A DNA stretch of 60,416 bases, counting the filler. It is 5 parts of 5 records of this genome, joined end to end, with 100 filler letters (N's around TTAATTAATTAA, not from the genome) between each part and the next. Parts side by side here need not be neighbours in the genome. Positions count along the whole stretch, not along the records: positions 21,323 to 27,156 come from DRR723986_4810; 4 more parts are not named here. One strand, written 5' to 3'. Of the stretch, positions 16,454 to 34,712 are shown in pieces (within the stretch, counting starts at the first letter, position 1; each line of letters begins with the position of its first letter). The notes below the pieces were generated by a model. It ran no database searches and was not told the origin of the DNA. It saw only the letters and a program-made list of their open reading frames with translations. Both the position numbers and the translations under genes were made by a program.

Positions 16454-16502
16454 TGCTGTTCCCCTTATTATTTTAGCGGGGCCCTGCGCCCCCTCGAATC
16501 GG

Positions 16503-16985
16503 TTAGCTTACCAGCGCTTTGCTGGAGAAGATAACGCCGGTTTCATCGGCATAGGCATAGTCGCCCGGTGCGATATCGATAGCGCCAAAGTGTAGGGCGA
16601 CATTGAGTTGCCCCTCGTTGCGCTTCTCGGTTTTACGCGGCACGCTGCCCAGTGCCAATATGCCTAGCTCCATCGGGGCGATCTCTTCCACATCGCGCAG
16701 GTAGCCGTAGATGATAATACCGCTCCAACCATTTTTAACCGCGGCGCCAGCAAGGTTGTCTCCAAGCAGTGAGCGTCGCACTGAGCCGCCGCCATCAACG
16801 ACCAATACGCGGCCTTCGCCAGGCTGTTTAACTTGCTCGGCAACCAGGGAGTTGTCTTCAAAGCACTTAATGGTGACAACTTGGCCGCCGAAATTGTGAG
16901 TCGCGCCGTAGTGGCGCAGCGGCAGTTCAAGAACGCGTACGTCGTCGCCGAATTCGTCGCAGAGATCGGGTGTAGAGATGGGCAT
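16503..16985 (-). CDS. rraA: RraA family protein (RNase E regulator / HMG aldolase-like)
   Basis: Start MPISTPDLCD at 16985 with GGAGGA RBS; KCFEDNS, VDGGGS, LGDNLA, RD. Confidence 0.9.
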   Translation of the reverse strand: MPISTPDLCDEFGDDVRVLELPLRHYGATHNFGGQVVTIKCFEDNSLVAEQVKQPGEGRVLVVDGGGSVRRSLLGDNLAGAAVKNGWSGIIIYGYLRDVEEIAPMELGILALGSVPRKTEKRNEGQLNVALHFGAIDIAPGDYAYADETGVIFSSKALVS

Positions 16986-17053
16986 GATTTTCCTCCGGGG
17001 CTCAACGCCGCAGTGTTGGCGCTGAGCATAAAATAAATGGTTTGGGTTAGGGC

Positions 17054-17617
17054 TTAGTTTGTGACTACAGCGAGGCACGATGCACTAATATCTGCATCGT
17101 AATAGGCCATGCCCAATTTATTTAGGTACTCCAAGCGATCGGCTTTCATTAGGTCTATTTCGGGCGCGTCGAAATTGTTAGCTTGGTAAATACCTGCCAG
17201 ATAAGCCATAAATTGCTCGCCCTCTTCGACTAATAATAAGCTGGCGGCGCCTACATCGGGTTTCACTTTGGCGTTCAGTTCTTCAGGAAGTGTTACCGCA
17301 AGCACAACTGGTTGCTCCTCGCCCTGAAACCTTACGCGGCGATTTCTCACGGTTTGCTCGGCCCAGTAAAAAGCCAATTCCTTGCTCTGGGTTAAGAAGA
17401 CCGGTTCGATAGATTCGGAATAGCTATTGCCGATAGTGGCCATGGTTTCTTTGGCCGCTTGCTTCAGTGCCTTGTCGCCGGAGCGTTTTAAGCCCTGCTC
17501 CATGATGGCGTCAACCAGCGCCGAAGAGGTGCCGTGATACCACGTGCTGCTGGTGGTAAAGCCCTGTTCGCTTAATAAAGCCCTGGCATCTTTAAGAAAA
17601 TCTGGTGCGTCAGTCAT
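17054..17617 (-). CDS. Hypothetical protein with ADP-ribosyltransferase-like motifs
   Basis: WYHGTS-x7-IMEQGL ... VFLT-x4-LAFYWA ... PVVLAV pattern; function inferred only. Confidence 0.65.
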   Translation of the reverse strand: MTDAPDFLKDARALLSEQGFTTSSTWYHGTSSALVDAIMEQGLKRSGDKALKQAAKETMATIGNSYSESIEPVFLTQSKELAFYWAEQTVRNRRVRFQGEEQPVVLAVTLPEELNAKVKPDVGAASLLLVEEGEQFMAYLAGIYQANNFDAPEIDLMKADRLEYLNKLGMAYYDADISASCLAVVTN

Positions 17618-17745
17618 AGTAGAAGTTACACAGTCGGTTTGAATTGGAAAGCATGTAGAAGTTTAGGGAAGCTTTGCACAGCTTAGCAATATCTCTGCGG
17701 GCCCTAAAAGGTCTGCGATTATCTTATTTAGCTAATTCTGCCCAC

Positions 17746-17779
17746 AAAAAAGGCGACGCCTTTTTAAGGTGTCGCCTTT
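17746..17779 (-). terminator. Intrinsic terminator downstream of aceA
   Basis: Minus strand AAAGGCGACACCTT-AAA-AAGGCGTCGCCTTTTTT. Confidence 0.85.
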
Positions 17780-17848
17780 CGGTTCGCAAGTGCGCTGTGC
17801 CCCGCGTGTTGCTAATTGCCGGGCACGTCGCCTAACGCGTGTTCAGAT

Positions 17849-19444
17849 TTAGCTGAACTGGTTAGAGGTGTTTTTCGCACCACCTGCTTTCAGTGCCATT
17901 TCACCTGCGTAGTACTCTTTGTGATCGTCGCCCAGGTCAGAACCGGCCATGTTTTGGTGCTTAACACAGGCGATACCCTGACGGATCTCTTTACGCTGAA
18001 CGCCTTCAACGTAACCCAGCATTGCTTTGTCACCGAAGTATTCTTTCGCCAGGTTGTCTACCGACAGTGCTGTAGTGTGGTAAGTCGGCAGAGTGATCAG
18101 GTGGTGGAATACGTTCGCTTCACGGGCAGTGTCTGCCTGGAAGGTGCGTACACGTGCATCAGCTGCAGCAGACAGTTCAGAGTCGTCGTACTCAGCAGAC
18201 ATCAGGTTGTCACGGTCGTAAGCAGAAACGTCTTTACCTTCAGCCGCCCATGCATCGTAAGTCTGCTGACGGAAGTTCAGTGTCCAGTTGAACGAAGGCG
18301 AGTTGTTGTAAACCAGTTTCGCATCGGGGTGAACCTTGCGAATCTCGTCCATCATGCCTTTGATTTCGTGAACAGTCGGTACTGCAGTTTCGATCCACAG
18401 CAGGTCAGCGCCAGCGTTGATCGCTTCGATGCAGTCAAATACGCAACGCTCGTGGCCAGTGCCCTGACGGAACTGGTACAGACCTGAAGGCAGGCGCTTA
18501 GGACGAACCAGCTTGCCGTTGCGGCTGATCAGTACATCGCCTTCAGCAGTGTCTTCTGGGGCAACTTCTTCACAATCCAGGAAGGAGTTGTAAATGTCAC
18601 CTTGGTCGCCTGGCTCGCGAACAACAGCGATCTCTTTAGTCAGGCCAGCACCTTCAGAGTCTGTACGTGCAACGATAACACCGTCATCAACACCCAGCTC
18701 AAGGAAAGCGTAACGCAGCGCGCGCAGCTTAGCGTGGAAGTCAGCGTGAGGTACGGTTACTTTACCGTCCTGGTGACCACACTGCTTCTCATCGGCAACC
18801 TGGTTTTCGATCTGCAGGCAGCATGCACCGGCTTCGATCATTTGCTTGGCCATCAGGTAAGTCGCTTCAGCGTTACCAAAACCGGCATCGATGTCGGCAA
18901 CGATGGGTACAACGTGAGTTTCGTGGTTGTCGATTTTGCTTTGGATTTCAGCTTCTTTAGCGCTGTCGCCAGCTTCGCGTGCTGCGTCCAGCTCGCGGAA
19001 CAAGCCACCCAGCTCACGTGCGTCAGCTTGGCGCAGGAAGGTGTACAGCTCTCTTACCAGGTCGGCAACAACGGTTTTCTCGTGCATAGACTGGTCAGGC
19101 AGAGGGCCAAAGCTAGAGCGCAGTGCAGCAACCATCCAGCCAGACAGGTAGAGGTAGCGGCGCTCAGTTGAGCCGAAGTGCTTTTTGATAGAGATCAGCT
19201 TTTGCTGACCAACAAAACCGTGCCAGCAGCCCAAAGACTGAGTGTACTTGGTTTTGTCTTTGTCGAACTCGGCCATGTCGCGACGCATGATGCCAGCAGT
19301 GTACTTGGCAATGTCCAGGCCGGTTTTGAATTTGTTCTGAGCACGCATGCGCGCGGCAGATTCGGGGTTGATAGCATCCCATGGGCTACCGGCTTGCTCT
19401 TTAAGTCCGGCGATGGATTGGATGTCTGCTTCTAACGATGACAT
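17849..19444 (-). CDS. aceA: Isocitrate lyase (long, Pseudomonas-type)
   Basis: DIDAGFG, QIENQVADEKQCGHQDGK, YNNSPSFNW; codon bias typical of a highly expressed gene. Confidence 0.97.
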   Translation of the reverse strand: MSSLEADIQSIAGLKEQAGSPWDAINPESAARMRAQNKFKTGLDIAKYTAGIMRRDMAEFDKDKTKYTQSLGCWHGFVGQQKLISIKKHFGSTERRYLYLSGWMVAALRSSFGPLPDQSMHEKTVVADLVRELYTFLRQADARELGGLFRELDAAREAGDSAKEAEIQSKIDNHETHVVPIVADIDAGFGNAEATYLMAKQMIEAGACCLQIENQVADEKQCGHQDGKVTVPHADFHAKLRALRYAFLELGVDDGVIVARTDSEGAGLTKEIAVVREPGDQGDIYNSFLDCEEVAPEDTAEGDVLISRNGKLVRPKRLPSGLYQFRQGTGHERCVFDCIEAINAGADLLWIETAVPTVHEIKGMMDEIRKVHPDAKLVYNNSPSFNWTLNFRQQTYDAWAAEGKDVSAYDRDNLMSAEYDDSELSAAADARVRTFQADTAREANVFHHLITLPTYHTTALSVDNLAKEYFGDKAMLGYVEGVQRKEIRQGIACVKHQNMAGSDLGDDHKEYYAGEMALKAGGAKNTSNQFS

Positions 19445-19500
19445 ATGCGGTCCCTTTTCATTGCGGTGGGTGGTTTAACGCAGGCTAGTGTACTCGCGAC

Positions 19501-19649
19501 CTATAAATTTTTCTAATTTATAGATTCTATATTCGGTATTTTCGGTGGGAATGTTGTTGGGGGGTGTGCTGCTTCGCTTATGTTAAGCGATCTCTATTTT
19601 AATAAATTGCTGCGGGGCCTGCTGCCCGCCCACCATTTAATAAATGAAT
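19501..19649. promoter_or_regulatory. Operator-like elements in the divergent aceA/glcB control region
   Basis: Perfect 9-5-9 inverted repeat CTATAAATT-TTTCT-AATTTATAG (19501-19523); two ATTT-N7-GAAT (T-N11-A) boxes at 19538-19552 and 19635-19649. Confidence 0.5.
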
Positions 19650-19806
19650 AACAAGCATAATGTGGATATATTTGTGAAATTATTGGCGGGTAGCTAGGAT
19701 GTCCTCCTAAGCCGTTATCTCTGATTTGCATGTGTTAGCTGTTAACATTCATGCTTTTTATATAAAGGGCGGTTTACAGACTCACCGACGCTAGAAGGAG
19801 TGGCAG

Positions 19807-21222
19807 ATGTCAGCGCAGCAAATCAACCGGGTAGAACACAGTGGTCTTCAGATTGCCGAGGTCTTGTACCGTCTGGTGAATGAGCAAGTTGCCCCGGGTA
19901 CCGGCATCGAGCCCGACGCATTCTGGTCTGCACTGGCCGAGATTGTCGCTGATCTGGCACCAAAGAACAAAGCTCTGTTGGCCAAGCGGGACGAGATTCA
20001 GGCCAAGATTGACGATTACCACCGCGCCAACCCGGGTAAGCCGGATATGGCGGCGTATAAAGCGTTCCTGGAAGAGCTGGGTTATCTGCTGCCCGAGCCC
20101 GCTGATTTTACCATTACCACCGAAAACGTCGATCAAGAAATCGCCGAACTGGCTGGCCCTCAGCTGGTAGTGCCGGTGATGAATGCCCGGTTTGGTCTGA
20201 ATGCTGCCAACGCCCGTTGGGGTAGCCTGTACGACGCTCTGTACGGCACCGATGTGATTTCTGAAGAGGGTGGTGCCGAGCGCGCTGGCGCTTACAACCC
20301 GGTTCGCGGTGATAAGGTTGTCGCCTATGCCAAGGCCTTCCTCGACAAGCATGTTGCTCTGGCTGAAGGCAGTCACGCCGATGCCACGGCATACAAAGTA
20401 GAAAATGGCAGTCTGGTAGTTAGCCTGGCGAATGGCGCCAATACCGGTCTGCAAGCGCCGGAGAAATTTGCCGGTTATATCGGCGATGCCGCTGCGCCCA
20501 GCAATATCCTGTTGGTTAACAACGGCCTGCATATTGATATTCAGATTGACGGCAGCCACCCGATTGGCAAAACCGATGCCGCTCAGGTGAAAGATGTTTG
20601 CCTGGAATCTGCCCTGACCACCATTCAGGACTGTGAAGACTCAGTTGCTGCGGTAGACGCTGAAGACAAGTGTGTGGCCTACAGCAACTGGCTCGGCCTG
20701 ATGAAGGGCAACCTCAGCGAAACCTTTAGCAAAGGTGGCAAAGAGCAGACTCGTCGCATGGCTGAAGACCGCGTGTTCACCGCGCCCAATGGCGGAGAAA
20801 AAGTGCTGCACGGCCGCAGCCTGCTGCTGGTGCGTAACGTCGGTCACCTGATGACCAATAACGCGATTATCGATGCACAGGGCAACGAAATCCCTGAAGG
20901 CATTATGGACGCCATGGTTACCGTACTGGCGGCGATGCACGATTTGAAAAAGACCGGCAGCCTGAGCAACTCGCGCACCGGCAGTGTTTATATCGTTAAG
21001 CCGAAAATGCACGGCCCCGAAGAAGTGGCATTTGCCGCCGAGCTGTTTGGCCGCGTTGAAGACGCTCTGGGTCTGGCTCGCAATACCCTGAAAATAGGCA
21101 TTATGGATGAGGAGCGCCGTACCACGGTTAACCTTAAAGCCTGTATTGCTGCCGCCAGTGAGCGCGTGATCTTTATCAATACCGGCTTTTTGGATCGCAC
21201 CGGCGATGAAATTCACACCAGC
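19807..21222 (+). CDS. glcB: Malate synthase G (truncated at contig end)
   Basis: [62 protein letters not shown]. Confidence 0.97.
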
Positions 21223-21322
21223 NNNNNNNNNNNNNNNNNNNNNNNNNNNNNNNNNNNNNNNNNNNNTTAATTAATTAANNNNNNNNNNNNNNNNNNNNNN
21301 NNNNNNNNNNNNNNNNNNNNNN
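21223..21322. other. Artificial contig linker
   Basis: 44 N + TTAATTAATTAA (stops in all six frames) + 44 N. Confidence 0.98.
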
Positions 21323-22329
21323 CCGTCAAGTTCAAAAGGCTGACTGGCCGTCAAACGCAGAGCTTCCAGCCGCGACTCGGCTTGGCTGGCATCCGGCAGC
21401 AACAATGCAAACTCATCACCACCTGTTCGCGCCAGGCAGGCATCCGCCGGGATCGCATCCAGCCACCGCCGGGAGAGCAAGCCAAGCAGTCGGTCTGCGG
21501 CATCTTCTCCCAGACAGTCGTTGAGATCCTTGAAGTTATCAAGATCAATAGACACAAGCGCTGCCGAGTTCCCAGCTCTCACGTCATCAGCAAGGTATTC
21601 ACGAATTCGGCGGACGATGCCGTTTCGGTTCCAGAGGCCGGTCAAGGCATCGGTGTAAGCGAGCGTTTCCAGATGGTGCTGATATTCTCGGGCTTGTTCT
21701 TCCAGGGCCTGATTCAGCCTTTCATGCTGTATTCGGGACAGCTCATCTTCGGCCCTCAAGCGGGCCATTTTCTCCCGCATTAACTGAATCGTGCTTGATG
21801 ACAGTTTTCCGTAAATTTCCAACAGCGCGTTGACCAGCACAGAGGCGGAACCGCTCAGCTCTGCATCGACCCGGTTTTTTGCCTCACTGACTTCCAGGCC
21901 TTGCTGAACCAACTCAACCGTCAGAGCCATTCGGCGATCTGATTCGAGGATATGGAAGGCTAACCAGCGTGTGAGGAAGTCAAACAGCCTGGTTAACACC
22001 TCTTCCTGAGGTTCGCGGCTGTTGCGCAGCTCCTCAACCTGCGCAAAAAACATCTGGTGTGCATCGTGGTGATTTCTCGCCATCACCGCTTCACCGAGGG
22101 TTAGGTTCCAGATCGCTTCCTCGTATTCAAAATGAAACGCCGCGTAGGTGAGCAACTCATCGAGAATCTGATCGGGTGTTAACTCGGAGGTGTCCGATGC
22201 AAAGTGCCAGGCCAGCCGATTAAGGATATTGACCAGCACCCTGTGCTGTTGATCAATATCATCAATGCCGGTTTCGAAATTCCGGTTCCAGGGAAAGATT
22301 TCGAAGGCATTCGGCACATCATTGGTCAC
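21323..22329 (-). CDS. Bacteriohemerythrin-GGDEF diguanylate cyclase (3' truncated)
   Basis: FPWNRNFETGIDDIDQQH, HFEYEE, HHDAH, WLAFHILESD di-iron ligands; DALTGLWNR, DLDNFK, RTGGDEF. GTG at 22329 has a GGGAG RBS and is preferred over the TTG at 22374. Confidence 0.92.
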
Positions 22330-22362
22330 AGAAGGACTCCCAAAACGGCAACCACCGTCTTG

Positions 22363-22404
22363 AGCATAGTTCAACTTCCGTTACATGCACTTGTTTAAAA
22401 TCAG
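22363..22404 (-). promoter_or_regulatory. Putative FNR/DNR class-II promoter for the hemerythrin-GGDEF gene
   Basis: TTGTT-TAAA-ATCAG (22391-22404, 8/10 to TTGAT-N4-ATCAA) lies 22 nt from a minus-strand TATGCT -10 (22363-22368). Confidence 0.6.
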
Positions 22405-22425
22405 GGGCCACCAAGGCCAGAGATC

Positions 22426-23613
22426 TCAGCCAGGCATTCCATCGGCCCTAGCCGTAACCAGAAACCGACCGTAGGAAACTCCGTAAAGCAGATAAGTAAG
22501 CAGCCAGAGTACAAATGGCAGCATCACTCCGCCTAAAAGGTAATGCTCGGGCCACCACACAGGAACAAAGGTTCGCGACAATGCTGTCGCAACCAATGTT
22601 ATCAATGCCGGCCAGATCAGCCACGGCAGCGCCAGCGGTCTTCCGGTGTGCCGCAGCCCGGCAATACAGAACACAGCAAGAATTGCCGTACCCGCAGCAC
22701 CTGCCGACAAGGCATGGCGGCCGGTGTAACCTGGCAGGGTGTCGATGAGTGCGGTGATACCCACCAGAACCAGCCCGACCACCATCCACAGATACGCCAG
22801 CGTCAGCAGCAACAGATACAACCGGGTCATCGCCCTGCCCCACGGCCATTCACTCAGACGGTCGGCCTGGGCTGCCGCAGCGGCAAGGGCAATCCAGCCG
22901 GTAACCACGTGGCCCGGAGCCCAGAAATCCGCAATCACAAACAGAATCAACGCGGCCACCGCCAGATGCTCCCGGGCAGGTGTTAATCGACCAGGGCCCG
23001 AAAGGCCGATTTCCTTCCGTGCCTCCATGGCCACCACCCGGATAATACGAGTAGCCGTGAGAGCGATCAGTACCAGTAGCAGATTGACGGTGGTGTTAAG
23101 GATCATCACCGGCGTGATCGTGCCGGCGACATCCGGCCACAACCAGGCCACATAGAAAAGCCCCTGAACCAGCACATAGCCGATCAGAGCCATGCCGATA
23201 CTCAGGTGTCGGCGGCCAGCCTCGGACAGCAAGGCCGGGGCTGCCCAGAGTAACAAAACAAGAGGAAAGGCAAGGTTCACAATAGCCACCAGCCAGCCTG
23301 GTATCAGAGCGGACAACCAGAACAGTACCCGCCCCGCCAGCCAGAGCATAATCAGGGCAGCCAAGGGCTTTCCTGCGATGGGTGCCACACTGGCCCAGGA
23401 AGGAATCGAGGTCAGCAGAAACCCTACCAGGGCTGCACTGACAAACCCGAACAGCATTTCATGGCCATGCCAGGCCAACGGAGGCAACGCCATGGGCAGG
23501 ATGAATTGCTGCATCAGCGCACCAATCCAGGGCAGCAGCGCAATTGGCGCGTACAGGGCGCCCAACAGGAAAAAGGGCCGGAAGCCGTAAGCCAGCCAGG
23601 GATGGTTAAACAT
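22426..23613 (-). CDS. nnrS: NnrS family membrane protein
   Basis: Start MFNHPWLAYGFRPFFL; WHGHEMLFGF, GFLLT, HAL, LRHTGR, RADGMPG C-terminus. Confidence 0.93.
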   Translation of the reverse strand: MFNHPWLAYGFRPFFLLGALYAPIALLPWIGALMQQFILPMALPPLAWHGHEMLFGFVSAALVGFLLTSIPSWASVAPIAGKPLAALIMLWLAGRVLFWLSALIPGWLVAIVNLAFPLVLLLWAAPALLSEAGRRHLSIGMALIGYVLVQGLFYVAWLWPDVAGTITPVMILNTTVNLLLVLIALTATRIIRVVAMEARKEIGLSGPGRLTPAREHLAVAALILFVIADFWAPGHVVTGWIALAAAAAQADRLSEWPWGRAMTRLYLLLLTLAYLWMVVGLVLVGITALIDTLPGYTGRHALSAGAAGTAILAVFCIAGLRHTGRPLALPWLIWPALITLVATALSRTFVPVWWPEHYLLGGVMLPFVLWLLTYLLYGVSYGRFLVTARADGMPG

Positions 23614-24592
23614 GGTAGAAATCCGCATCCGGCAACTTCCCGCCGATGAACCCAGACGACAATTCAGACAGTGCCGAGAAGAAGTCCTCCAGAGCTGGCC
23701 GGGCTTCCTGCGCATTGACCATTTTCAGTGCGGTGCGGGCAATCGCTCCTTCATACACCTGACGGCTCAAGGGTGACCGATCCGCACCCAACCTCGCCGC
23801 GTCCTCTGGCTGCCTAACTACCCAGTCAACCGCCCGGCCAATGGCCGCTTGCAGCGCTGCAACCTGCTCAGGCGCCTGCTCCAGCAACTCCCGCCGGCAA
23901 AGTACCCCTGCCTGCGGCAGCAGTGGCTCACCACCGGCCAGCCGCGCCCACTCCTGCTGCAGATCCAGCTCTTGGGGTGACTGCCCGAACTGCATGCTCT
24001 GTAGCCGGGTTGCCGTGCGCATGGGTTCCGGCAACACCGCCGCGTCCAGGCGTTGCGCCACATACATCTGTACCGTCTCGAACGGGCTGGACTGATAGCT
24101 CACCTTGACGTCACGTCCCACTTCCAGGCCCGCCTTACCGAGCAAGTAGCGGAACACCAGATCCGGCATATCCCCGCGCCAGGGCACGCCCACATACCTG
24201 CCGGCCAGATCTTCCATCTTCGCCAACGGGCCTTTCTGCTCGAGGCCCAGCATGCCCAGGGTGCCCCACACATTCACGTTCATCAGCACCACGGGAACGC
24301 CACGGTTATACAGATTGGCGGCCACATTGGTCGGGGTTGCCGTCACCATCACTTCCGCCCGCGCCAGCCAGGCCCGCAACTGATCCGGGTCTTTCCAGTC
24401 CCGAAGTTCCCGTTCAGGGATCAGGTTTTTCAGCTCCGGATCTTCCAGCGCCCGGGCCAGGATCACCTGGGGCAAGCCAAGAGGTGTCGCTGCAATCAGT
24501 TTGCCGGGTTTGGCTGCAAACGCCCTTTGTAGGGGTACGGCTGACATCAAAGCCGAACAGGCCGCCAGTTTGAGCAATTCACGACGATTCAT
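23606..24592 (-). CDS. ABC substrate-binding protein (SsuA/NitT/TauA-like), Tat-exported
   Basis: MNRRELLK twin-arginine signal; TPTNVAANLYNRG, AVLPEP, LPQAG. Confidence 0.88.
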   Translation of the reverse strand: MNRRELLKLAACSALMSAVPLQRAFAAKPGKLIAATPLGLPQVILARALEDPELKNLIPERELRDWKDPDQLRAWLARAEVMVTATPTNVAANLYNRGVPVVLMNVNVWGTLGMLGLEQKGPLAKMEDLAGRYVGVPWRGDMPDLVFRYLLGKAGLEVGRDVKVSYQSSPFETVQMYVAQRLDAAVLPEPMRTATRLQSMQFGQSPQELDLQQEWARLAGGEPLLPQAGVLCRRELLEQAPEQVAALQAAIGRAVDWVVRQPEDAARLGADRSPLSRQVYEGAIARTALKMVNAQEARPALEDFFSALSELSSGFIGGKLPDADFYHV

Positions 24593-25329
24593 GCCACCTC
24601 CGAATCCGGATGAAACAGAAAACTCTCGCTGACCACCGGTTGCCTCAGCAGGTGGCCAGCTTCTTCATACAGCCAGGCATGGCTGCGTTCGCGGTAAGGG
24701 GTTGTGACCGGATGTTCAAACACCACGGTGCCGGGCGAGCCGGAAACAACAATAATTCGATGGGCCAGACGCAGGGCTTCAGTGAGATCGTGAGTCACCA
24801 TCAAGGTCGCTATACCCTGATCGACCACAAGCCGTTCCACCAGATCCTGGGCTTCGCTGCGCAGCCCCACATCCAGGGCACTGAAAGGCTCATCCAACAG
24901 CAGGAAATCGGCGCCCACTGCCAGCGCCCTCGCCAGAGCCACCCGCTGTTGCATGCCACCAGACAGCTCGTGGGGAAAATGCTCATCATAATCTGAAAGC
25001 CCTACCTGGTCGGCCAACTCTTTCGCCTGCGTCAGTCGATCTCGCCGGGGCACGCCCCGGGCTTTCAGGCCCAGGGCAATGTTATCGAGCAGCCGCCGCC
25101 AGGGCAGCAACCGGGGCTCCTGGAATACCGCTGCGGTGGTTGTAAACTGATTGCTCACCTGTCCCGAAGTGGCGTCCAGCACTCCCGATGCCATACGCAA
25201 CAGGCTGGTTTTTCCGCAGCCGGACGGCCCCACCAGGCACACGGACTCACCCGGCGCCACCTGAAGATCCACGTCCGACACAATGGTGTTCGGGCCAAGA
25301 TCCAGTGAAACCTTTTGCAGCGTCAGCAT
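24589..25329 (-). CDS. ABC ATP-binding protein (SsuB/TauB-like)
   Basis: GPSGCGKT, FQEPRLLPW, LSGGMQQR, LLLDEPFSALD. Confidence 0.95.
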   Translation of the reverse strand: MLTLQKVSLDLGPNTIVSDVDLQVAPGESVCLVGPSGCGKTSLLRMASGVLDATSGQVSNQFTTTAAVFQEPRLLPWRRLLDNIALGLKARGVPRRDRLTQAKELADQVGLSDYDEHFPHELSGGMQQRVALARALAVGADFLLLDEPFSALDVGLRSEAQDLVERLVVDQGIATLMVTHDLTEALRLAHRIIVVSGSPGTVVFEHPVTTPYRERSHAWLYEEAGHLLRQPVVSESFLFHPDSEVA

Positions 25330-25339
25330 CGCAAACTCC

Positions 25340-26125
25340 TCAGCCCGGCATGGCAGGGCCTTTGACCTGCCGCCAGGGTTCCATTTTTTTCTGCAAGGGG
25401 CGCAGAAAACCGTGTTCGGCCACTAGCAGCAACACCACGACCACCACAATCCAGGCCATGGCACCGGCAGTGTCCAGGCTCACCCGGGCCATGGCCATGC
25501 CCTCCCCTACCCCATCTTCTGTGGCAAACAATTCCGCCATTACGGTGACTTTCCAGGCCACCCCCAGAGCGGTAATCAATGCCGGGAATACGTAGGAAAC
25601 AATGTGGGGCAGATAGAAATCCCAAAGGCGCATGGCAAAGGGCACGCGGAACACATCGCCCATCTCCTGCAGGCGCTGGTCCAGGGTTCGTGCACCAATC
25701 TGGGCACCGGCAAAAGCAACCGGAATGGTGGTGGCCACCACCGTGTAGATCGCCGCCAGGGAGCCGCTGCCGAACCACAACATTGCCAGCACAATCCAGG
25801 CGATGGGCGGTATGCCCAGAAGTACGGTTGAAACCGGCTCCAGCGCTCGGCCAACCGTGTGGGACAACCCTGCAATAAGGCCCAGAGCAACACCAGCCAG
25901 CGCAGCAATGGCAAAGCCGGTCATGGCCCGCCAGGTGGTGGCCCAGACGGCCGTCCAGAGCTCACCGTTGTCGGCAAAGCCAACGAGGGACGATAGCGCA
26001 TCCCGCGGGCCGGGGAGCAAAAAGCTACCGTATGACAAACTCCCCCACTCCCAGAGCGCCACGAATAATAAAACTCCGGTAAGGCTGCCACCCCAACCCA
26101 GACCACTGCGAATCAAACTGCCCAT
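25340..26125 (-). CDS. ABC permease (SsuC/TauC-like)
   Basis: LLPGP, IPPIAW, AWKVTVMAELF...GVG. ATG at 26125 is preferred over 26152 because the predicted TSS is about 26147. Confidence 0.92.
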   Translation of the reverse strand: MGSLIRSGLGWGGSLTGVLLFVALWEWGSLSYGSFLLPGPRDALSSLVGFADNGELWTAVWATTWRAMTGFAIAALAGVALGLIAGLSHTVGRALEPVSTVLLGIPPIAWIVLAMLWFGSGSLAAIYTVVATTIPVAFAGAQIGARTLDQRLQEMGDVFRVPFAMRLWDFYLPHIVSYVFPALITALGVAWKVTVMAELFATEDGVGEGMAMARVSLDTAGAMAWIVVVVVLLLVAEHGFLRPLQKKMEPWRQVKGPAMPG

Positions 26126-26181
26126 ACACTCACACCCTGCAAGAACTGACATGAGTGTACCCGCACGGACGCAAACTCCTG

Positions 26182-26195
26182 TTGACGAAAATCAA
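26182..26195. promoter_or_regulatory. FNR/DNR/NnrR-type box shared by two divergent promoters
   Basis: TTGAC-GAAA-ATCAA (9/10). Minus-strand -10 TACACT (26154-26159) is 22 nt away; plus-strand -10 TATATT (26219-26224) is 23 nt away. Confidence 0.8.
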
Positions 26196-26240
26196 ATACG
26201 AATCAGTTTCATTTGCAGTATATTGCGATCCATTCTCAAT
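26195..26240. promoter_or_regulatory. Two Fur-like boxes overlapping the TBDR promoter
   Basis: AATACGAATCAGTTTCATT (26195-26213) and ATTGCGATCCATTCTCAAT (26222-26240) resemble AATGAGAATnATTCTCATT. Confidence 0.65.
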
Positions 26241-26264
26241 CGTCAGCAGTTATCGGAGAACTCC

Positions 26265-27156
26265 ATGAATCGACGCCCCCATCCACTGGCTTTAGCCATC
26301 TTTGCCTTTTCCGTTTTACCCGCCGCACACGCTGCGACCGGCCATTCTTCGGAACTTAAGGAACTGGTCGTAACCGCCAAAGGCTACGAATCCGACACGC
26401 TGGAAACCGCGAGCGCAACAGAGCGTTTAACCACGGACAACACTGCCGCTTCGAAAACCGCCGGCGATCTCTTCCGTGGCAAACCCGGTCTGGCGGTTCA
26501 GGGCGATGGCGGCGCCTGGGGAGGTAACCCGGTTATTCGCGGCCTGAAAAAGGAAAGTGTGGTGCTTCTGGTGGACGGCGTTCGCCTGAATTCCGCCCAG
26601 CCCCAGGGGGCCATTGCTTCCCTGGCAGACATGAGCCTGCTGGATACCATCGAAGTGGTCAAAGGCCCGGCCTCGGTACTGCACGGCACCGGTGCCATGG
26701 GCGGTGCTATCAACCTGCGTAATCCGGAGGCGACTTTCTCGGAACAACCTGAAGCCAATGGTCGATTCTCCGGCAGCACTGGCACGGTGGACAGCAGCCT
26801 GGCCGGCGGCGCACTTTTGGAGCTTTCCAGCCGGAACCACGGCCTTGTTATCGGTGCCGCCGCCAAAGATGTGGACGACTACGGAACACCCGACGGTGAT
26901 GTTGAAAACAGCGGCTTCCGCTCGGAATCCTTTCTGGCGAAATATGCTTTCAGGGTAACCGAGAACCAGAAACTGACGCTGAACCTGCAGAACCACGAAG
27001 ACCGGGAAGTCTGGTATCCGGGCTCTGCCAAGCCCGGCCCGGGCGGCAACGGCACGCTGACGATCCATTCGCCCAAGCAGAAGCGCACGCTAGCCGAACT
27101 CGGCTACGAGGCCGGCATCGGTACCGGCACCCTGGAGACCAGCATTTATCGGCAGG
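26265..27156 (+). CDS. TonB-dependent receptor (3' truncated)
   Basis: Start MNRRPHPLA with GGAG RBS; TonB box ELVVTA; plug PVIRG...LVDGVR...IEVVKGPASVLHGTGAMGGAIN. Confidence 0.93.
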
Positions 27157-27256
27157 NNNNNNNNNNNNNNNNNNNNNNNNNNNNNNNNNNNNNNNNNNNN
27201 TTAATTAATTAANNNNNNNNNNNNNNNNNNNNNNNNNNNNNNNNNNNNNNNNNNNN
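27157..27256. other. Artificial contig linker
   Basis: 44 N + TTAATTAATTAA + 44 N. Confidence 0.98.
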
Positions 27257-27677: not shown

Positions 27678-28017
27678 CAAGAACACATCGGACACAGAGT
27701 TCGAGACATTGTTTGCGGCGGCACGATCTGCCCCGCCGGCCGTGCCGGAGGCCTTGATGGCCAGTATCCTTGCCGATGCGGGGCAGATGCAACCGGCACT
27801 GCCCGCGCAGGGCGGCGTTTTCTCATGGCTGCGGGCCTTGGGCGGCGGGCCGGGTGTTGGCGGGCTGGTTTTTGCCACCTGTGTCGGGTTCTGGATCGGG
27901 GTTGCACCGCCGGAAAACCTGCCGGATCTGGCGGGACAACTGTTGAACTTGCAATCCAGTACGGACATTGACGACAGCGATCTGACCGGCTTTGGCTGGG
28001 ACATCGAAGAGGGATAG
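27664..28017 (+). CDS. Putative membrane anti-sigma factor
   Basis: Overlaps the sigma stop; short N-terminal helical domain, one TM (GGLVFATCVGFWIG), acidic tail. Confidence 0.7.
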   Translation: MTRSDKNTSDTEFETLFAAARSAPPAVPEALMASILADAGQMQPALPAQGGVFSWLRALGGGPGVGGLVFATCVGFWIGVAPPENLPDLAGQLLNLQSSTDIDDSDLTGFGWDIEEG

Positions 28018-28021
28018 ACCT

Positions 28022-28531
28022 ATGGCACATCAGACACCTACACCCAAGGCCAGCCGCAAAATGCGCTGGGCGCTGGGTCTGTCTTTGGCAGTGAACCTGC
28101 TGTTTGTCGGCGCCATCGGCGGTGCGGTCTATCGCAATGCGGGCGGTCCCGGTCTGGACCGGCATCATGCGCCCGAGCTGCGCAGCTATGGCACCCCCTA
28201 TGTGCGTGCCTTGCCGCGCAAGGACCGGCGCGCGCTTTTTGCCGGCCTGAAGGCAGACAATGGCGCTGTTCGGCCCTCCCGATCAGAGCGGCGGGCGCAG
28301 TATGACGAAATGCTGGCCGTCCTCAGGGCAGATCCCTTCGAGGTTGACGCCGTGCGGGACATTCTCAAGGCGCAGGGTGCCGCCGCTTTCGGAATGCAGA
28401 CCGCAGCGCATATCGCATGGCTGGACCGGATCAGCGCCATGTCAGAGGTAGAGCGGCAGTCATACGCAGACCGTCTTGAGCGGGAGTTGAAAAAGCCCAA
28501 GCGCAAACGGCGCAAACCGCCACGCGACTAG
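28022..28531 (+). CDS. Periplasmic heavy-metal sensor-like protein (CpxP/ZraP/CnrX-like)
   Basis: LSLAVNLLFVG anchor, LRADPFE, MSEVERQSYA helical pattern. Confidence 0.75.
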   Translation: MAHQTPTPKASRKMRWALGLSLAVNLLFVGAIGGAVYRNAGGPGLDRHHAPELRSYGTPYVRALPRKDRRALFAGLKADNGAVRPSRSERRAQYDEMLAVLRADPFEVDAVRDILKAQGAAAFGMQTAAHIAWLDRISAMSEVERQSYADRLERELKKPKRKRRKPPRD

Positions 28532-28610
28532 CGCTCTTGCCTGCGGTGCCCTCGGCTTGCTCTCTTAGAACCAGCGCGATAGGCAGATGTCGTAGGATTT
28601 GGAGCTGGCG

Positions 28611-29111
28611 ATGAAGTTCAAGGATAATGACGAAGTGCTGGCCACTGTGCAGGCGTCTTCCGGGCGGCGGTTTTTGGGCGTCGTCTCGCTCGGCATCCTG
28701 GGCGTGATGCTGATCTATATTGCGATGGTGCGCTCGCCCGCCTTTGAATGGCAGCTGTTTCTGATCGGCATCGGCGCAGCGGCGCTTTGGATGGCGCAAG
28801 CGATGTGGCGCGCCACGGCCAGCGCGGTCGAACTGACACCGCTGGTGCTGCGGGATGCAGACGGCACCGTCATCGCAGAGGTTGCGGATATCGTCGGAAT
28901 GGATCGCGGTTTTTTCGCGTTCAAACCCTCGAACGGTTTTTTGTTGAAGGTCGGCAGCGGCAGCACCCGCGACTGGCGGCCGGGTCTGTGGTGGCGTTTT
29001 GGCCGCCGGATCGGCATCGGCGGGATGACCCCCGGCAGTCAGACCAAGTTTATGTCAGAAATCATCTCGGCGATGATGGCCACCCGCGATGCGGATATGC
29101 CAGAAATTTAG
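28611..29111 (+). CDS. Hypothetical membrane protein
   Basis: Two TM helices followed by a beta-rich domain (RGFFAFKPSNGF, PGLWWRFGRRIGIGG); GGAG RBS. Confidence 0.75.
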   Translation: MKFKDNDEVLATVQASSGRRFLGVVSLGILGVMLIYIAMVRSPAFEWQLFLIGIGAAALWMAQAMWRATASAVELTPLVLRDADGTVIAEVADIVGMDRGFFAFKPSNGFLLKVGSGSTRDWRPGLWWRFGRRIGIGGMTPGSQTKFMSEIISAMMATRDADMPEI

Positions 29112-29689
29112 GTGCCAGCCGGGCAATTTTCCCAGCATACGCGCGGCGCATAACGGGGCCGTGTGAACACAAAGTTGCGGATCTCACGCTCTTCCAGCCC
29201 TGTTTTGAAAGGGGCCTCATAGGTGGTCCAGGTCTCGACCACAATGATCCGCTCACGGTCTGGCATGACCGGCAGTTTGTCATGCCAGTTCTCCACATCG
29301 TTGTTGTTGAGCGGCAGCACAGCGCCGCGTGTTTGTGACCAATCGCGAAAAAAGCGATCTTCGGATGCATCATAAAGAACTGATGTCACGCGGATAGAGG
29401 ATTCGCCCGAGCTGTTGGTCAGATATTCAAACAACTGATGCAGGCCGGTCAGATATTCCCCATCAATCGGAACCGTCTCACGGGAAATGGCATCGCCCAA
29501 CGAATAGGCAGCCCTCTGGGCCAATCCATGCGTTCTGAACGAATGAAAGATCGAAAACATGGTCAAGAAGGCCCAGAACATCGCTGGCAGAATAATCATG
29601 GCTTCAAGAGCGATCACGCCATCTTCGCGGCGCATGAAATCTAAGCGTGCGATGTATCTCAGAGTGACTTTGCAACGTTGGATAAACAT
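29108..29689 (-). CDS. TadE/TadF-like Flp pseudopilin
   Basis: RREDGVIALEAMIILP prepilin cleavage motif (G|xxxxE); C-terminal TRPRYAP. Confidence 0.82.
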   Translation of the reverse strand: MFIQRCKVTLRYIARLDFMRREDGVIALEAMIILPAMFWAFLTMFSIFHSFRTHGLAQRAAYSLGDAISRETVPIDGEYLTGLHQLFEYLTNSSGESSIRVTSVLYDASEDRFFRDWSQTRGAVLPLNNNDVENWHDKLPVMPDRERIIVVETWTTYEAPFKTGLEEREIRNFVFTRPRYAPRVCWENCPAGT

Positions 29690-30228
29690 TAGCCCGGCTC
29701 CTGCACAAATGTGGAAGACGAAATCATCTTGGCCTTGCCAGACCCGTCTTTTTCGAACGCATAACCAAGTCCGCTGGTCGGATAGACCGGATCAAAGCGC
29801 ACGCAGGCACGCAGCATCATCAGTTCGTGCTGTTGGCCCAACGTGAACCCACGCACCGGCTGAACCGGCTCTGCTGTGTCTACACAATCGGCCTGCTGGT
29901 TAAAGGTCGCAAAATCACGCGGATTTACCGGCGTCATCTCAAGGCGCAGGGACGAATCGCAATCCTCAAGGAAGCCGGCGTTGTCGCAGATCATGGTTTT
30001 GATCTGGTTGTGGGTCATGGCGACATTGGTGTTCAGGCGCACATAACGCACCGCGATGTCGAGGCCGCGATCGAGATACATCTGCCGCATCGAGTAAAGG
30101 CCCATCTCAACCGACATCAGGAATGCCCCAAACAGGATCGGGATGAAGATACAAAATTCGATGACCAGCGCAGAGCCGTCCTCGTCGCGGCGAAAACGCC
30201 GCAACTGGTTTTTCAAGGTGGTCTTCAT
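29689..30228 (-). CDS. tadE: TadE-like Flp pseudopilin
   Basis: RRFRRDEDGSALVIEF; C-terminal FVQEP. Confidence 0.85.
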   Translation of the reverse strand: MKTTLKNQLRRFRRDEDGSALVIEFCIFIPILFGAFLMSVEMGLYSMRQMYLDRGLDIAVRYVRLNTNVAMTHNQIKTMICDNAGFLEDCDSSLRLEMTPVNPRDFATFNQQADCVDTAEPVQPVRGFTLGQQHELMMLRACVRFDPVYPTSGLGYAFEKDGSGKAKMISSSTFVQEPG

Positions 30229-31637
30229 TGTGTCAACCTCAGCTGGTTAATCTGGCGTGCAATGGCCGAGAAGGCTTCGCTGATTTCAACACCTTCCACC
30301 CGGAAGAAGTGGCTGGGCGAAGAGGCGCAGTCTTCCATGACCGAGGCGCCGTGATTGCCAACCTCAAAGCCGATTGACCAGATCACAATGTTCTTGTCCT
30401 TTGCCGCATCACAGATGTTGCTCAGCATCGTGTCCGCCTGGCTTGGCGAGTATTTGGTGTAGCGCCATTTATGGTGCTTGCTGGATTTCACACTTCTGTT
30501 CAGCCAGTAATAGAGCGGATAACGGCTCCAGTGGTAGCGTTCACTGCTGGAATTATAGCGGCTGTTCTTGATCCGAACCGTCGACACGTTCTCACCGTCC
30601 GTCATCAGGATGATCGTCTTGAGGGTGTCGGGATCACCGTAGTTTGCGGGACGGTTTGTGAACACGCCATCGACCGTGCCAATATTCTGGGTAACCGGGC
30701 GGAATGCCGGGTCCAGCATCGCCACACCCCATTTCATACCAAGGTGAATTGCCGTGTTTGCACGAGGACGGAACTGGTTGATCTGTGCCTTCAATGCGTT
30801 CTTGTCCTGCGAGAAAGCGGTGATGTATTCAAACGTTCGCTTGGGGCAACCGGGATTGCTGATTGAGTCCTCAGCATGGCTGCCGTTCCAGCTCCAACCG
30901 GCTTCAAAGTGTTGCATGTGTTCGTAGGACTCGGTCAAGCTGATCGCCGTTTCGTTAAAGTCGCTGCTCTCGAAATCCACGCAACGCGAATACGGGTGTC
31001 GCGATGTCACATTCAATTCATCAAAAATGTCTGGGCCTGCATTCACCTGCGCGGTGTAGGGGATCACGTTCACCGAGATCAGATCCTGGTTGGCTGGTTT
31101 GAGAACAGCATCCAGAAAAGTGCCCGCAGCATCATGCAGGTTGTCCATCTTAGAATTGTGTCGCATCGACCCGGAGATATCGAGCACCAGGGAAATTTCG
31201 ACTTTGTTGACCTTTTCCTGCGCTCTTGAACGGGCGGGCACGTTCAACTCTTCGACGCCCATCGTGTCCATAAATTGTGTGTTCATGGTCATCGAGGCAT
31301 CAACAGTCACTGTGCGGTAGTTCAGGCCCTCGTCCACATCGACGTTTGACACATATCCGGCCATGCCGGATTTATCGAAATAGTCGCGCACAACAGCTTC
31401 GGGATCGAGGGTTTGATCAAGGTCGGCCGCGGCCAGCACGGCACGGTCAGAGACAGCTTGAATGCGCGTGCGTTCCATTTCGTGACGCATCATGTCTGCG
31501 CCAATGCCGCCGATCATCACCATCATCAAGACCATAAACATCGCGAAGATGGTGATTGTTCCGTCTTCGTCGCGGGCGAATTTCCGCGGCTGCTTCATGA
31601 TCGCATCGATCATTTCTTGGCTCATATCTGGTTTCAT
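30225..31637 (-). CDS. tadG: TadG-like pilus protein with vWA domain
   Basis: FARDEDGTITIF, DRAVLAAA, MIDAS LDISGSM, MTDGEN, C-terminal INQLRLTQ. Confidence 0.88.
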   Translation of the reverse strand: MKPDMSQEMIDAIMKQPRKFARDEDGTITIFAMFMVLMMVMIGGIGADMMRHEMERTRIQAVSDRAVLAAADLDQTLDPEAVVRDYFDKSGMAGYVSNVDVDEGLNYRTVTVDASMTMNTQFMDTMGVEELNVPARSRAQEKVNKVEISLVLDISGSMRHNSKMDNLHDAAGTFLDAVLKPANQDLISVNVIPYTAQVNAGPDIFDELNVTSRHPYSRCVDFESSDFNETAISLTESYEHMQHFEAGWSWNGSHAEDSISNPGCPKRTFEYITAFSQDKNALKAQINQFRPRANTAIHLGMKWGVAMLDPAFRPVTQNIGTVDGVFTNRPANYGDPDTLKTIILMTDGENVSTVRIKNSRYNSSSERYHWSRYPLYYWLNRSVKSSKHHKWRYTKYSPSQADTMLSNICDAAKDKNIVIWSIGFEVGNHGASVMEDCASSPSHFFRVEGVEISEAFSAIARQINQLRLTQ

Positions 31638-33111: not shown

Positions 33112-33211
33112 NNNNNNNNNNNNNNNNNNNNNNNNNNNNNNNNNNNNNNNNNNNNTTAATTAATTAANNNNNNNNNNNNNNNNNNNNNNNNNNNNNNNNN
33201 NNNNNNNNNNN
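33112..33211. other. Artificial contig linker
   Basis: 44 N + TTAATTAATTAA + 44 N. Confidence 0.98.
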
Positions 33212-33878: not shown

Positions 33879-34712
33879 ATGAAGGCATCGGCGGGCGGTT
33901 ATGCCCGGGCATCCAGTTTGCGCAACGCGCTGGAAATGCTGGCCGCGAGCGACGGCAACGGCCGCGTGCTTGCAGGTGGCCAGAGCCTGGTTGCGGCCTT
34001 GAACCTGCGTCTCTCCGCAGGCGACGTCCTGATCGACATTTCCCGCCTGAGCGAGCTTTCCGGGGTAACCGAAACGCAGGATGGTCTGCGGATCGGCGCG
34101 CTGACATCGCATGCGGAGATTGGTCGTAACCCGCTGATCCGGCAGTCTGTTCCACTTCTTTCACAGGCGGTGGAATTCATCGCCCATGCTGCGATCCGCA
34201 ACCGCGGCACGATAGGTGGTGCGCTGGCTCATGCCGATCCGGCTGCGGAGTTTCCAGCCTGCGTTCTGGCCCTTGGCGCCACGCTGCATGTGGAGGGCCT
34301 CAACGGCTCGCGGGACATACCGGTGGAAGATTTCTTTCAGGACATTTTCGAAACGGCCATCGAGGAGGGTGAAATCCTGACCGGCCTCTCGGTCCCGAAG
34401 GCAGAGCCCGGCGAAACGCAGGTCATCGTAGAGGTTGCCAGGAGATCCGGCGACTATGCCCTTACCGGAGTGTGCCTCGTCAAGCGCGCCGATGGACACC
34501 GGCTGTCGCTTTTTTCCGTCGGGCCCAAGCCGGTCCTTGCCGAAGGGGCCATGGCCGCTCTCGACCAGGGCAACATTGATGGCGCCGTTCAGGCTCTGCA
34601 GGCGGAAATCGACCCACCGTCGGACACCCAGGCAAGTGCCGCTTACCGTCGCCACCTTGCCGGTGTCCTCTTACGCCGCGCCACCGCCAGGATCGAGGGA
34701 GGAAACGCATGA
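33879..34712 (+). CDS. Molybdenum hydroxylase FAD subunit (CoxM-like)
   Basis: LAGGQSL, IRNRGTIGG, ADPAAE. Confidence 0.92.
   Translation: MKASAGGYARASSLRNALEMLAASDGNGRVLAGGQSLVAALNLRLSAGDVLIDISRLSELSGVTETQDGLRIGALTSHAEIGRNPLIRQSVPLLSQAVEFIAHAAIRNRGTIGGALAHADPAAEFPACVLALGATLHVEGLNGSRDIPVEDFFQDIFETAIEEGEILTGLSVPKAEPGETQVIVEVARRSGDYALTGVCLVKRADGHRLSLFSVGPKPVLAEGAMAALDQGNIDGAVQALQAEIDPPSDTQASAAYRRHLAGVLLRRATARIEGGNA

Follow-up and report, generated by a model that had tools for sequence, protein, structure and literature searches.

What does a bacterium take up through a TonB-dependent receptor (TBDR) whose gene diverges from an ATP-binding cassette (ABC) importer of the sulfonate and nitrate type, when the operon of that importer ends in a gene for NnrS, a membrane protein that, according to one report, contains heme and copper and relieves the stress of iron–nitric oxide (NO) complexes (PMC10256816)? 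The question is raised by a locus on a 5.8-kb Marinobacter nauticus contig, which occupies positions 21323-27156 of the window, that is, of the whole stretch of 60,416 bases analyzed here, assembled from five contigs. An earlier note on this DNA had proposed that the locus imports a metal complex or tetrapyrrole when iron is scarce and O2 is low or NO is present, with NnrS as a dedicated processing step. We find that the locus is a conserved uptake module, composed of a TBDR, a type-I importer of the NitT/TauT kind (SsuABC-like), a substrate-binding protein (SBP) exported by the twin-arginine translocation (Tat) pathway, and a dedicated NnrS, for which iron acquisition during anaerobic or denitrifying growth is the most likely function. 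The earlier note had recognized no characterized system of this make-up, and neither did we come across one, the gene set not being described in the full-text literature searched, a body that does not cover subscription journals and supplements. TonB/ABC uptake is known as a kind; what is new is the SBP subfamily, the NnrS lineage, and an unusual dual control.

The operon runs permease–ATPase–SBP–NnrS on the minus strand and is separated by a 112-nucleotide (nt) spacer from the TBDR gene, which is read divergently on the plus strand (table 1). The 10-nt gap between permease and ATPase, the 4-nt overlap of ATPase and SBP, and the 8-nt overlap of SBP and NnrS are exactly as first reported. For NnrS, the start at 23613 was picked from an alignment of relatives, the longest open reading frame (ORF) extending to 23715. 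The permease probably starts at the ATG at 26128, 8 codons inside its longest ORF (26128-26152), because relatives align from residue 9 onward and because the putative minus-strand promoter would begin transcription inside the longer reading. Marinobacter nauticus DSM 50418 (locus L001) encodes the same SBP (100% identity), so the full context of the locus was taken from this strain, where the receptor is complete at 689 amino acids (aa).

To delimit the module, an alignment of 20 SBPs was used to collect 493 candidate stretches, 421 of which were confirmed, and the best 80 were kept; these amount to 78 distinct loci (63 proteobacterial, 13 from monoderms or Chloroflexi, and 2 from Desulfobacterota or Nitrospirota), in which ORFs were called, clustered, and then scored with hidden Markov models built from the clusters. 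The neighborhood search that the earlier note had called for supports linkage. NnrS adjoins the ABC genes in 61 of the 63 proteobacterial loci, and the sequences of the remaining pair (L017 and L030) stop inside the SBP gene; the automated count was 59/63, to which L063 and L074 were added on inspection. A TBDR is adjacent in 50 of the 63. Two more loci (L006 and L012) are cut on that side, 10 have no adjacent receptor (L038, L039, L052, L054, L060, L066, L067, L070, L073, and L074), and L075 shows a weak TBDR fragment only, so that untruncated proteobacterial loci without an adjacent TBDR total 11. Synteny is conserved across Alpha-, Beta-, and Gammaproteobacteria and Campylobacterota. The 15 remaining loci have the ABC core with neither NnrS nor TBDR, and their SBPs carry lipoboxes.

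The receptor is the variable part. Among the 50 adjacent TBDRs, 28 are of the Marinobacter type, which is divergent and limited to the Marinobacter/Halomonas lineage, whereas a second (16/50) and a third type (6/50) mostly stand in a co-directional TBDR–SBP–permease–ATPase–NnrS order. Such is the case on Agrobacterium pAt plasmids, where ubiX–ubiD–DUF488, ubiT–ubiU–ubiV, and a hypothetical gene precede the module and napEFDABC follows it; in A. fabrum, the module lacks the TBDR. On plasmid pACLO of Arcobacter cloacae, a Crp/Fnr regulator diverges from TBDR–SBP–hypothetical–permease–ATPase–NnrS–ChaN lipoprotein, and a second TBDR with a PepSY-TM protein adjoins the module. A Sulfurimonas plasmid has permease–ATPase–NnrS with the SBP on the other strand and no TBDR.

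The phylogeny of NnrS adds to this. The protein matches PF05940 over nearly its whole length (265.5 bits against a cut-off of 28; residues 5-389 of 395, model positions 1-371 of 371). In an unrooted maximum-likelihood tree of 71 sequences, one branch with support of 100/100 splits 63 module-linked copies from the 8 copies sampled outside a module, which include those linked to nirK in R. etli, to nar in C. necator, and to nor in Chelatococcus, Azospirillum copies, second copies from Cohaesibacter, and one extra copy of a Xanthobacteraceae metagenome-assembled genome. This sequence comparison, also suggested by the earlier note with regard to nor-linked NnrS, supports the view that module NnrS form a dedicated lineage apart from the sampled nirK-, nor-, and nar-linked and standalone ones. 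Cohaesibacter loci continue past SBP–permease–ATPase–NnrS with another NnrS, which falls among the non-module copies, and then with a TBDR and a further SBP gene. As for structure, the AlphaFold2 model of NnrS (predicted local distance difference test [pLDDT] score 91.9) has twelve or more helices, and its Foldseek matches in the PDB are the oxidase subunit CcoN (8smr_E, E 6.8e-4), 3mk7, qNOR, NorB, and COX1, with TM scores of 0.57-0.66; the modeled fold is that of heme-copper-oxidase subunit I, with its twelve-helix core. In that subunit, six canonical histidines bind two hemes and CuB or FeB. Conserved residues of NnrS are H49, E52, H300, and H322, and only three histidines are invariant or nearly so in 22 module NnrS. 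Together with the fold, H49, H300, and H322 are indirect signs that heme and copper may be bound. To our knowledge, no biochemical activity has been assigned to NnrS.

The second line of evidence comes from the spacer, for which the earlier note had claimed FNR-type and Fur-type boxes. The FNR/Dnr-type box of this strain is centered 76.5 nt upstream of the TBDR ATG, and sites of its quality number 4 in the whole 60-kb stretch. The adjoining Fur-type matches score 12/19 at 26219-26237 and 11/19 at 26192-26210 and 26198-26216, scores of at least 12/19 being found at 53 of the 119,852 positions of the stretch. The case for the boxes, FNR-type and Fur-type alike, rests on conservation and enrichment. 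We aligned the receptor–permease spacers of 28 of the 31 Marinobacter/Halomonas/Billgrantia loci, leaving aside L004 for its different arrangement and the cut L006 and L012. The FNR-type box lies at the same place in all 28 (17 with at most one mismatch, 11 with two), TTGA-N6-TCAA being invariant in the 16 Marinobacter spacers, and all 12 Halomonas-group spacers keeping a CTGAC-N4-ATCAA-like box with a Fur-like GAAT..TTATAA stretch after it; beside it, Fur-like boxes of 12-14/19 occupy the same alignment positions in most of the 28 relatives. Marinobacter spacers have a conserved TAnnnT hexamer to each side of the box, some 29.5 nt from its center, at 26219-26224 (+) and 26159-26154 (-); the predicted transcription starts would lie about 41.5 nt to each side. 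A spacing of about 29.5 nt to a -10-like hexamer is the established geometry of a class II FNR-type activator, which implies that one FNR-type site may serve both divergent promoters.

Beyond this lineage, Nitrincola, Vibrio, and Terasakiella have FNR-type boxes accompanied by Fur boxes of 15-17/19 upstream of the module; the pairs of Thalassospira and Cohaesibacter are weaker, and Fur boxes without an FNR box occur in Cytobacillus, Brevibacillus, and Arcobacter (16/19 in the divergent region of pACLO). When 77 module promoters were compared with 437 other promoters of the same loci, an FNR-type box with at most one mismatch was found in 29/77 versus 20/437, a Fur box of at least 14/19 in 22/77 versus 22/437, and both together (Fur at least 13/19) in 19/77 versus 4/437, and the combined pattern recurs in several orders. 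Positional conservation and enrichment thus place the boxes above chance. As predicted from these sites, Fur repression combined with FNR/Dnr activation implies that the module would be transcribed when iron is scarce and O2 low (or NO present). As to the gating by O2 or NO put forward in the earlier note, the two signals are indistinguishable from the box sequence alone.

The inner-membrane part is a type-I importer that fits no curated family. The SBP scores 31.8, 30.2, and 26.4 bits against the Pfam models NMT1_2, VitK2_biosynth, and NMT1, and 52.2 against TIGR01728 (SsuA_fam), whose cut-off is 163.5. The ATPase stays below the cut-off of every named NCBIfam equivalog (PhnT2 182 vs. 458, TauB 177 vs. 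357, NtrCD TIGR01184 145.5 vs. 291.8), as does the permease for SsuC (77 vs. 347) and NtrB TIGR01183 (74.8 vs. 209). The importer is therefore no plain SsuABC or NrtABC, which speaks for the earlier note. The SBP begins with a twin-arginine RRELLK motif, R3 and R4 being invariant or nearly so in 20 diverse relatives, and its family comprises 956 clusters at 50% identity (E up to 1e-30). Its AlphaFold2 model (pLDDT 91.3) retrieves with Foldseek, in this order, 3hn0, PqqT with pyrroloquinoline quinone (PQQ), a thiamin-binding protein, Thi5 and ThiY, and SsuA and TauA. By sequence, 3hn0 alone is clearly related (profile E 2.6e-23); PqqT reaches a profile E of 2.4e-4 (23 bits, partial coverage) with a structural identity of 18-20%, which is no close relationship. 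The residues invariant in 71 family members (D70, R73, N93, N96, W109, D141, D144, D161, Y166, E189, W215, and E302) are mainly acidic, amide, and aromatic ones. Some SBP relatives are fused to a Cu_amine_oxidN1 domain, a cell-surface domain of Firmicutes, and hence give no functional lead.

On this basis, we propose a Feo-like iron-acquisition module, repressed by Fur and activated by FNR/Dnr, in which NnrS would be the membrane redox partner, a proposal that we consider evenly poised between right and wrong in its full form. The TBDR would admit an iron-bearing cargo to the periplasm, and the SBP and ABC transporter would move this cargo, or iron freed from it, across the inner membrane; at the membrane, NnrS could act as a redox partner that frees or conditions the iron by electron transfer, or else shield it from NO or O2. 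Denitrifying cells have a high demand for iron in heme and Fe-S centers, and ferrous iron is destabilized by nitrite and NO. The reading of iron acquisition is drawn from the feoABC-like control sites and from iron-uptake neighbors in several phyla: a fur-family gene stands next to the TBDR in L033 and L042, and in Anaerobacillus, Brevibacillus, and Cytobacillus, the module has FecCD-type siderophore ABC genes on its flanks. The ChaN lipoprotein and the TBDR with a PepSY-TM protein in Arcobacter belong to the same iron context, as does a periplasmic heme protein encoded beside the receptor in L001. In addition, one protein cluster from one contig (P0271, 804 aa) is a module-type NnrS fused to a C-terminal imelysin/Peptidase_M75 (EfeO-like) domain, whose NnrS half shares 44-46% identity with Xanthobacteraceae/Bradyrhizobium module copies and 41-42% with Agrobacterium ones. 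The imelysin/EfeO-like superfamily is implicated in iron uptake (PMC3143127), and we take this natural fusion as a lead, not as proof. A further cluster, P0270, is a tandem NnrS–NnrS of the standalone type.

The "processing step" that the earlier note had attributed to NnrS can be kept as an inference, and it could be taken further: NnrS might be the obligatory redox subunit of an unrecognized class of TonB/ABC iron importers, an enzyme of the heme-copper-oxidase fold that reduces or oxidizes incoming iron, an iron chelate, or heme on the periplasmic side, possibly with quinol, NO, or O2 as redox partner. We regard this stronger version as tentative and would sooner expect it to fail than to hold. 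If it were true, it would explain why canonical NnrS guards the cellular iron pool from NO and would provide a first biochemical function for the NnrS family.

The nature of the cargo is less well indicated. In heme receptors, a histidine stands between a FRAP box and an NPNL box. The L001 receptor has YRAP at 453, a histidine at 473, and NPQL at 476, which are kept in the Marinobacter/Halomonas receptors and absent from the other receptor groups, related boxes occurring in many TBDRs. Its best family is TIGR01785 TonB-hemin (259.2 bits, short of the cut-off of 316.85), and its best solved relatives are PhuR and ShuA. When eight representatives were typed by family, the Marinobacter type came closest to TonB-hemin, the second type to TonB-copper, and the third to siderophore or PqqU models, with every score below the family cut-off. 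A heme cargo is weakly suggested by the Marinobacter receptor type, by the gene for a hexameric tyrosine-coordinated heme protein (HTHP) beside it, by ChaN in Arcobacter, and by the heme reported in NnrS. The tetrapyrrole cargo of the earlier note is only weakly indicated, the heme-receptor-like TBDRs being limited to the 28 of Marinobacter/Halomonas, the other receptors being of other types (16 and 6), and 11 loci being without an adjacent receptor; as for the companion genes to be looked for, no hutW, chuW, hutX, nir, or nor was found within 10 kb in L001. A variable receptor and a constant inner part would suit a cargo that is shared by all these modules once the outer membrane has been crossed.

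Several observations weigh against an iron importer with NnrS as redox partner. The TBDR type varies between lineages, and the 13 monoderm/Chloroflexi modules work without NnrS. No histidine or cysteine is conserved among the 71 SBP family members, unlike in a known iron or heme site; we know of no member of this SBP fold class that binds iron or heme, and PQQ, thiamin or its pyrimidine, and sulfonates are the ligands of its nearest characterized relatives by structure. The methyltransferase and cupins encoded beside the ABC genes, described below, hint at a processed organic cargo. With regard to control, the Fur-type matches of 11-12/19 are unconvincing on this strain alone, a generic scan for sigma-70 promoters and terminators gave nothing above shuffled expectation, and the enrichment counts are not independent events because the loci are phylogenetically related. 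In the modules of Rhizobiales, including Agrobacterium, neither an FNR nor a Fur consensus box was seen, in a search that did not extend to boxes for Irr, RirA, and FixK; if Irr or RirA were used there, this lack would be expected. Finally, the full-text literature searched contains no expression data for the locus.

The neighborhood of the locus adds a context of anaerobic growth. In L001, nrdD, nrdG, DUF488, a TsoY-family protein, a membrane protein, and the periplasmic HTHP are encoded on the receptor side, and an SCP2 protein, narL, narX, and a NarK-type transporter of the major facilitator superfamily on the other. The hemerythrin-GGDEF(-EAL) gene downstream of nnrS, which carries an EAL domain in L001, belongs to a cluster (c19) present in 5/78 loci, all close Marinobacter relatives, and is thus a lineage-specific neighbor outside the conserved module; its product could couple the sensing of O2, NO, or iron to cyclic di-GMP. 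Recurrent extras elsewhere are a Crp/FNR-family regulator with an E--SR recognition motif and no N-terminal cysteine cluster, a class I S-adenosylmethionine (SAM) methyltransferase, one or two small (110-aa) cupins, and, twice, a weak CopD-like membrane protein. Regulator, methyltransferase, and cupin stand as a trio by the ABC genes in Vibrio, Cohaesibacter, Chloroflexaceae, Bacillota, and Thermodesulfovibrio. A sequence search of the PDB returned no match for the methyltransferase and only uncharacterized cupins for the cupin, and an ESM Atlas search with the SBP and the methyltransferase returned generic names only.

The five contigs of the window are joined by N44-linker-N44 spacers at 21223-21322, 27157-27256, 33112-33211, and 49387-49486, so that genes flanking a spacer are not physically linked; ORFs crossing one are artefacts. 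Found on the other contigs are genes of the glyoxylate shunt (AceK, isocitrate lyase, and a truncated malate synthase G, the last named by reading its translation), an efflux pair of the resistance-nodulation-division type, Tad-pilus-type genes, a caspase-domain protein, and a xanthine-dehydrogenase-type molybdoenzyme with a tripartite ATP-independent periplasmic (TRAP) transporter.

Table 1. Positions of the features discussed, in the window or in the locus named.
Feature	Sequence	Position	Strand	Remark
NnrS paralogue, 395 aa, last operon gene	Window	22426-23613	-	PF05940
SBP, 328 aa, NMT1/SsuA fold, twin-arginine signal	Window	23606-24592	-	NMT1_2, NMT1, VitK2_biosynth matches
ABC ATPase, 246 aa	Window	24589-25329	-	ABC_tran 97.6 bits
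ABC permease, type I	Window	25340-26152 (longest reading)	-	BPD_transp_1 63.9 bits
FNR/Dnr-type box TTGACGAAAATCAA	Window	26182-26195	unstranded	One mismatch to TTGAT-N4-ATCAA
AT-rich stretch with overlapping Fur-type matches, 11-12/19, over the putative TBDR promoter	Window	26192-26237	unstranded	Consensus scan
TBDR: signal peptide, plug, start of barrel; 297 codons, cut by contig end	Window	26265-27156	+	Plug 68.3 bits
Hemerythrin-GGDEF(-EAL) gene, cut by contig end	Window	21325-22374	-	51 nt downstream of nnrS
Gene groups of the other contigs	Window	13562-21222; 9312-13507; 27992-31637; 33879-40656; 53904-55316
Hemerythrin-GGDEF-EAL gene	L001	12219-14252
HTHP, signal peptide	L001	5842-6171	+	Beside TBDR
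150-aa membrane protein of no recognized family	L001	5049-5501	-	Beside TBDR
TsoY-family (seleno)protein	L001	3785-5032	+	Beside TBDR
Two-NnrS locus, Cohaesibacter	L059	12619-18210
Two-NnrS locus, Cohaesibacter	L068	8108-13841
Two-NnrS locus, Cohaesibacter	L069	12262-18360
Module between O2-independent ubiquinone genes and nap operon, Agrobacterium pAt	L079	1388-15010
Module between O2-independent ubiquinone genes and nap operon, Agrobacterium pAt	L080	151-14986
780-aa U32 protein and glutathione S-transferase (GST) preceding SBP, Nitrincola	L038	6582-9586
Regulator, methyltransferase, and cupin trio	L058	13801-15807
Regulator, methyltransferase, and cupin trio	L065	13696-15732
Regulator, methyltransferase, and cupin trio	L034	3475-5559
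Regulator, methyltransferase, and cupin trio	L037	7448-12386
Regulator, methyltransferase, and cupin trio	L063	12806-17964
Regulator, methyltransferase, and cupin trio	L043, L076, L078

The alternative that survives best is a salvage system for an organic cofactor, or a precursor of one, that contains no iron but would depend on Fe-S or radical-SAM enzymes for its synthesis under anaerobic conditions; a thiamine pyrimidine, a flavin, or a compound of the PQQ or quinone type could be meant; the control by Fur and FNR would then be iron-sparing, and NnrS a quinone- or redox-linked accessory. We deem it unlikely, although the binding protein itself would suit it: its fold is nearest to PqqT, the thiamin SBP, ThiY, Thi5, SsuA, and same-fold "biosynthetic pathway" enzymes, it matches VitK2_biosynth, some of its relatives carry the NCBI name "MqnA/MqnD/SBP family," and its acidic and aromatic invariant residues fit an organic cargo better than iron. 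The co-occurrence of the methyltransferase and cupins with the ABC genes points the same way, as does the place of the module directly after ubiT–ubiU–ubiV and ubiD/ubiX in Agrobacterium and after the U32 protein in Nitrincola. However, an Rfam scan of the contig (E up to 1) detected neither a riboswitch nor any other RNA family, the resemblance to PqqT is as distant as the values above indicate, and the iron-uptake neighbors (fur, FecCD systems, ChaN, and PepSY-TM with a TBDR), the imelysin domain fused to a module-type NnrS, and the likeness of the Marinobacter TBDR to heme receptors all speak against it.

It might also be argued that the module supplies copper, or another metal ion, to the enzymes of denitrification, an OprC-like receptor passing the metal to the SBP and NnrS handling it. 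For five typed receptors of the second type (group B), TIGR01778 TonB-copper is indeed the best-scoring family, two Bacillota loci have a gene for a CopD-like membrane protein after that of the SBP, NnrS is described as copper-containing in the source cited at the outset, and the module stands among nar, nap, and nrdDG genes. Nevertheless, the scores of these receptors (142-237 bits) are far below the cut-off of 472, and the CopD-like match is weak (25 bits against 32). The copper site of OprC is made of cysteine, methionine, and histidine, whereas 14 full-length group-B receptors are without any invariant cysteine or methionine, and the control sites are of the Fur type and not those of a copper regulator. 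Copper uptake thus appears improbable.

We likewise see little chance that the locus is a defense against nitrosative stress, in which NnrS would limit iron–NO complexes, the ABC transporter would move a nitrogen oxyanion or an unrelated solute, and the TBDR would be a chance neighbor. Membership of the NnrS family, the FNR/Dnr-type box, the setting among denitrification and anaerobic genes, and the resemblance, below cut-off, of ATPase and permease to nitrate ABC components would all agree with it. Yet module NnrS lies across the 100/100 branch from the nirK-, nor-, and nar-linked copies, the TBDR is adjacent in 50/63 loci and in three different arrangements, Fur boxes are present, and the ABC core occurs without NnrS in 13/13 monoderm/Chloroflexi loci, several of them with Fur boxes. 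Lastly, a chance position of nnrS beside a common importer of sulfonate, taurine, or nitrate is very improbable since, even if SsuA, SsuC, TauB, and NtrB are the best named NCBIfam matches, these fall far below their cut-offs, no ssuD, ssuE, or tauD lies within 10 kb in L001, and the linkage to NnrS, TBDR, and Fur and FNR boxes is conserved.

Under the preferred reading of iron acquisition, the module, whose hosts include Marinobacter and Agrobacterium, would be a further means of uptake in marine and soil habitats that are anoxic and poor in iron. An NnrS tied to an importer also gives testable questions, namely, the ligand of the SBP, electron transfer, and the iron starvation of mutants during denitrification. 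Taken as a whole, the interpretation offered in the earlier note is partly supported.

How does this module relate to known systems? By its receptor, the Marinobacter/Halomonas version is most like the heme uptake loci (PhuR/ShuA/HemR with HmuTUV-type importers; TIGR01785), from which it differs by its importer, of type I and not of the FecCD/BtuC type, and by the lack of heme-degrading or heme-chaperone genes nearby. Like SsuABC, TauABC, and NrtABC, members of the same transporter superfamily, it combines one BPD_transp_1 permease and an ATPase with a Tat-exported SBP of the NMT1/SsuA fold; however, it misses every curated cut-off, has no desulfonating or assimilatory enzymes nearby, is regulated differently, and alone has NnrS and a TBDR as partners. 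The closest solved relative of the SBP is BDI_1369 of Parabacteroides distasonis (PDB 3hn0, E 2.6e-23, TM 0.74), which has the family blocks AANLYN-G, WG-LY, and GG-LPD-F but reads GTTPD where the module has GDMPD; it is a structural-genomics entry labeled "nitrate transport protein" for which we know of no ligand or function. TbpA with FbpABC is a case of a TBDR paired with a type-I importer. The statement of the earlier note that TBDRs normally do not pair with SsuA-like importers meets a further exception in PqqT of Methylobacterium extorquens (PDB 9b1u), the nearest functionally characterized structural relative of the SBP (Foldseek E 3e-15, TM 0.71), an SsuA-fold protein that holds a flat cofactor imported in another bacterium, E. 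coli, via the TBDR PqqU (bioRxiv 10.1101/2024.06.04.597491). The Marinobacter TBDR differs in matching PqqU weakly and by the plug alone. We know of no NnrS in the PqqT/PqqU system.

Canonical, NO-regulated NnrS (Vibrio cholerae and Rhodobacter sphaeroides) is of the same Pfam family, neither protein being in our tree, and only the module copies end an ABC operon. Pyoverdine FpvGHJK-FpvCDEF and FoxB are periplasmic systems of reductive iron release. With these and with EfeUOB (PMC3143127), the module may share a principle, namely, that a redox protein of the membrane or periplasm, a binding protein, and a transporter act together on incoming iron; FpvG, FoxB, EfeU, and EfeB bear no sequence relationship to it, and the sole link is the imelysin/EfeO-like fusion. 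The closest parallel in control is feoABC of E. coli, which is repressed by Fur and switched on by FNR and ArcA as anaerobic regulators (PMC4676285). There is no kinship between the proteins, Feo being a GTPase-permease without TBDR, SBP, or NnrS, but the regulatory logic, as read here from the sites, would be the same.

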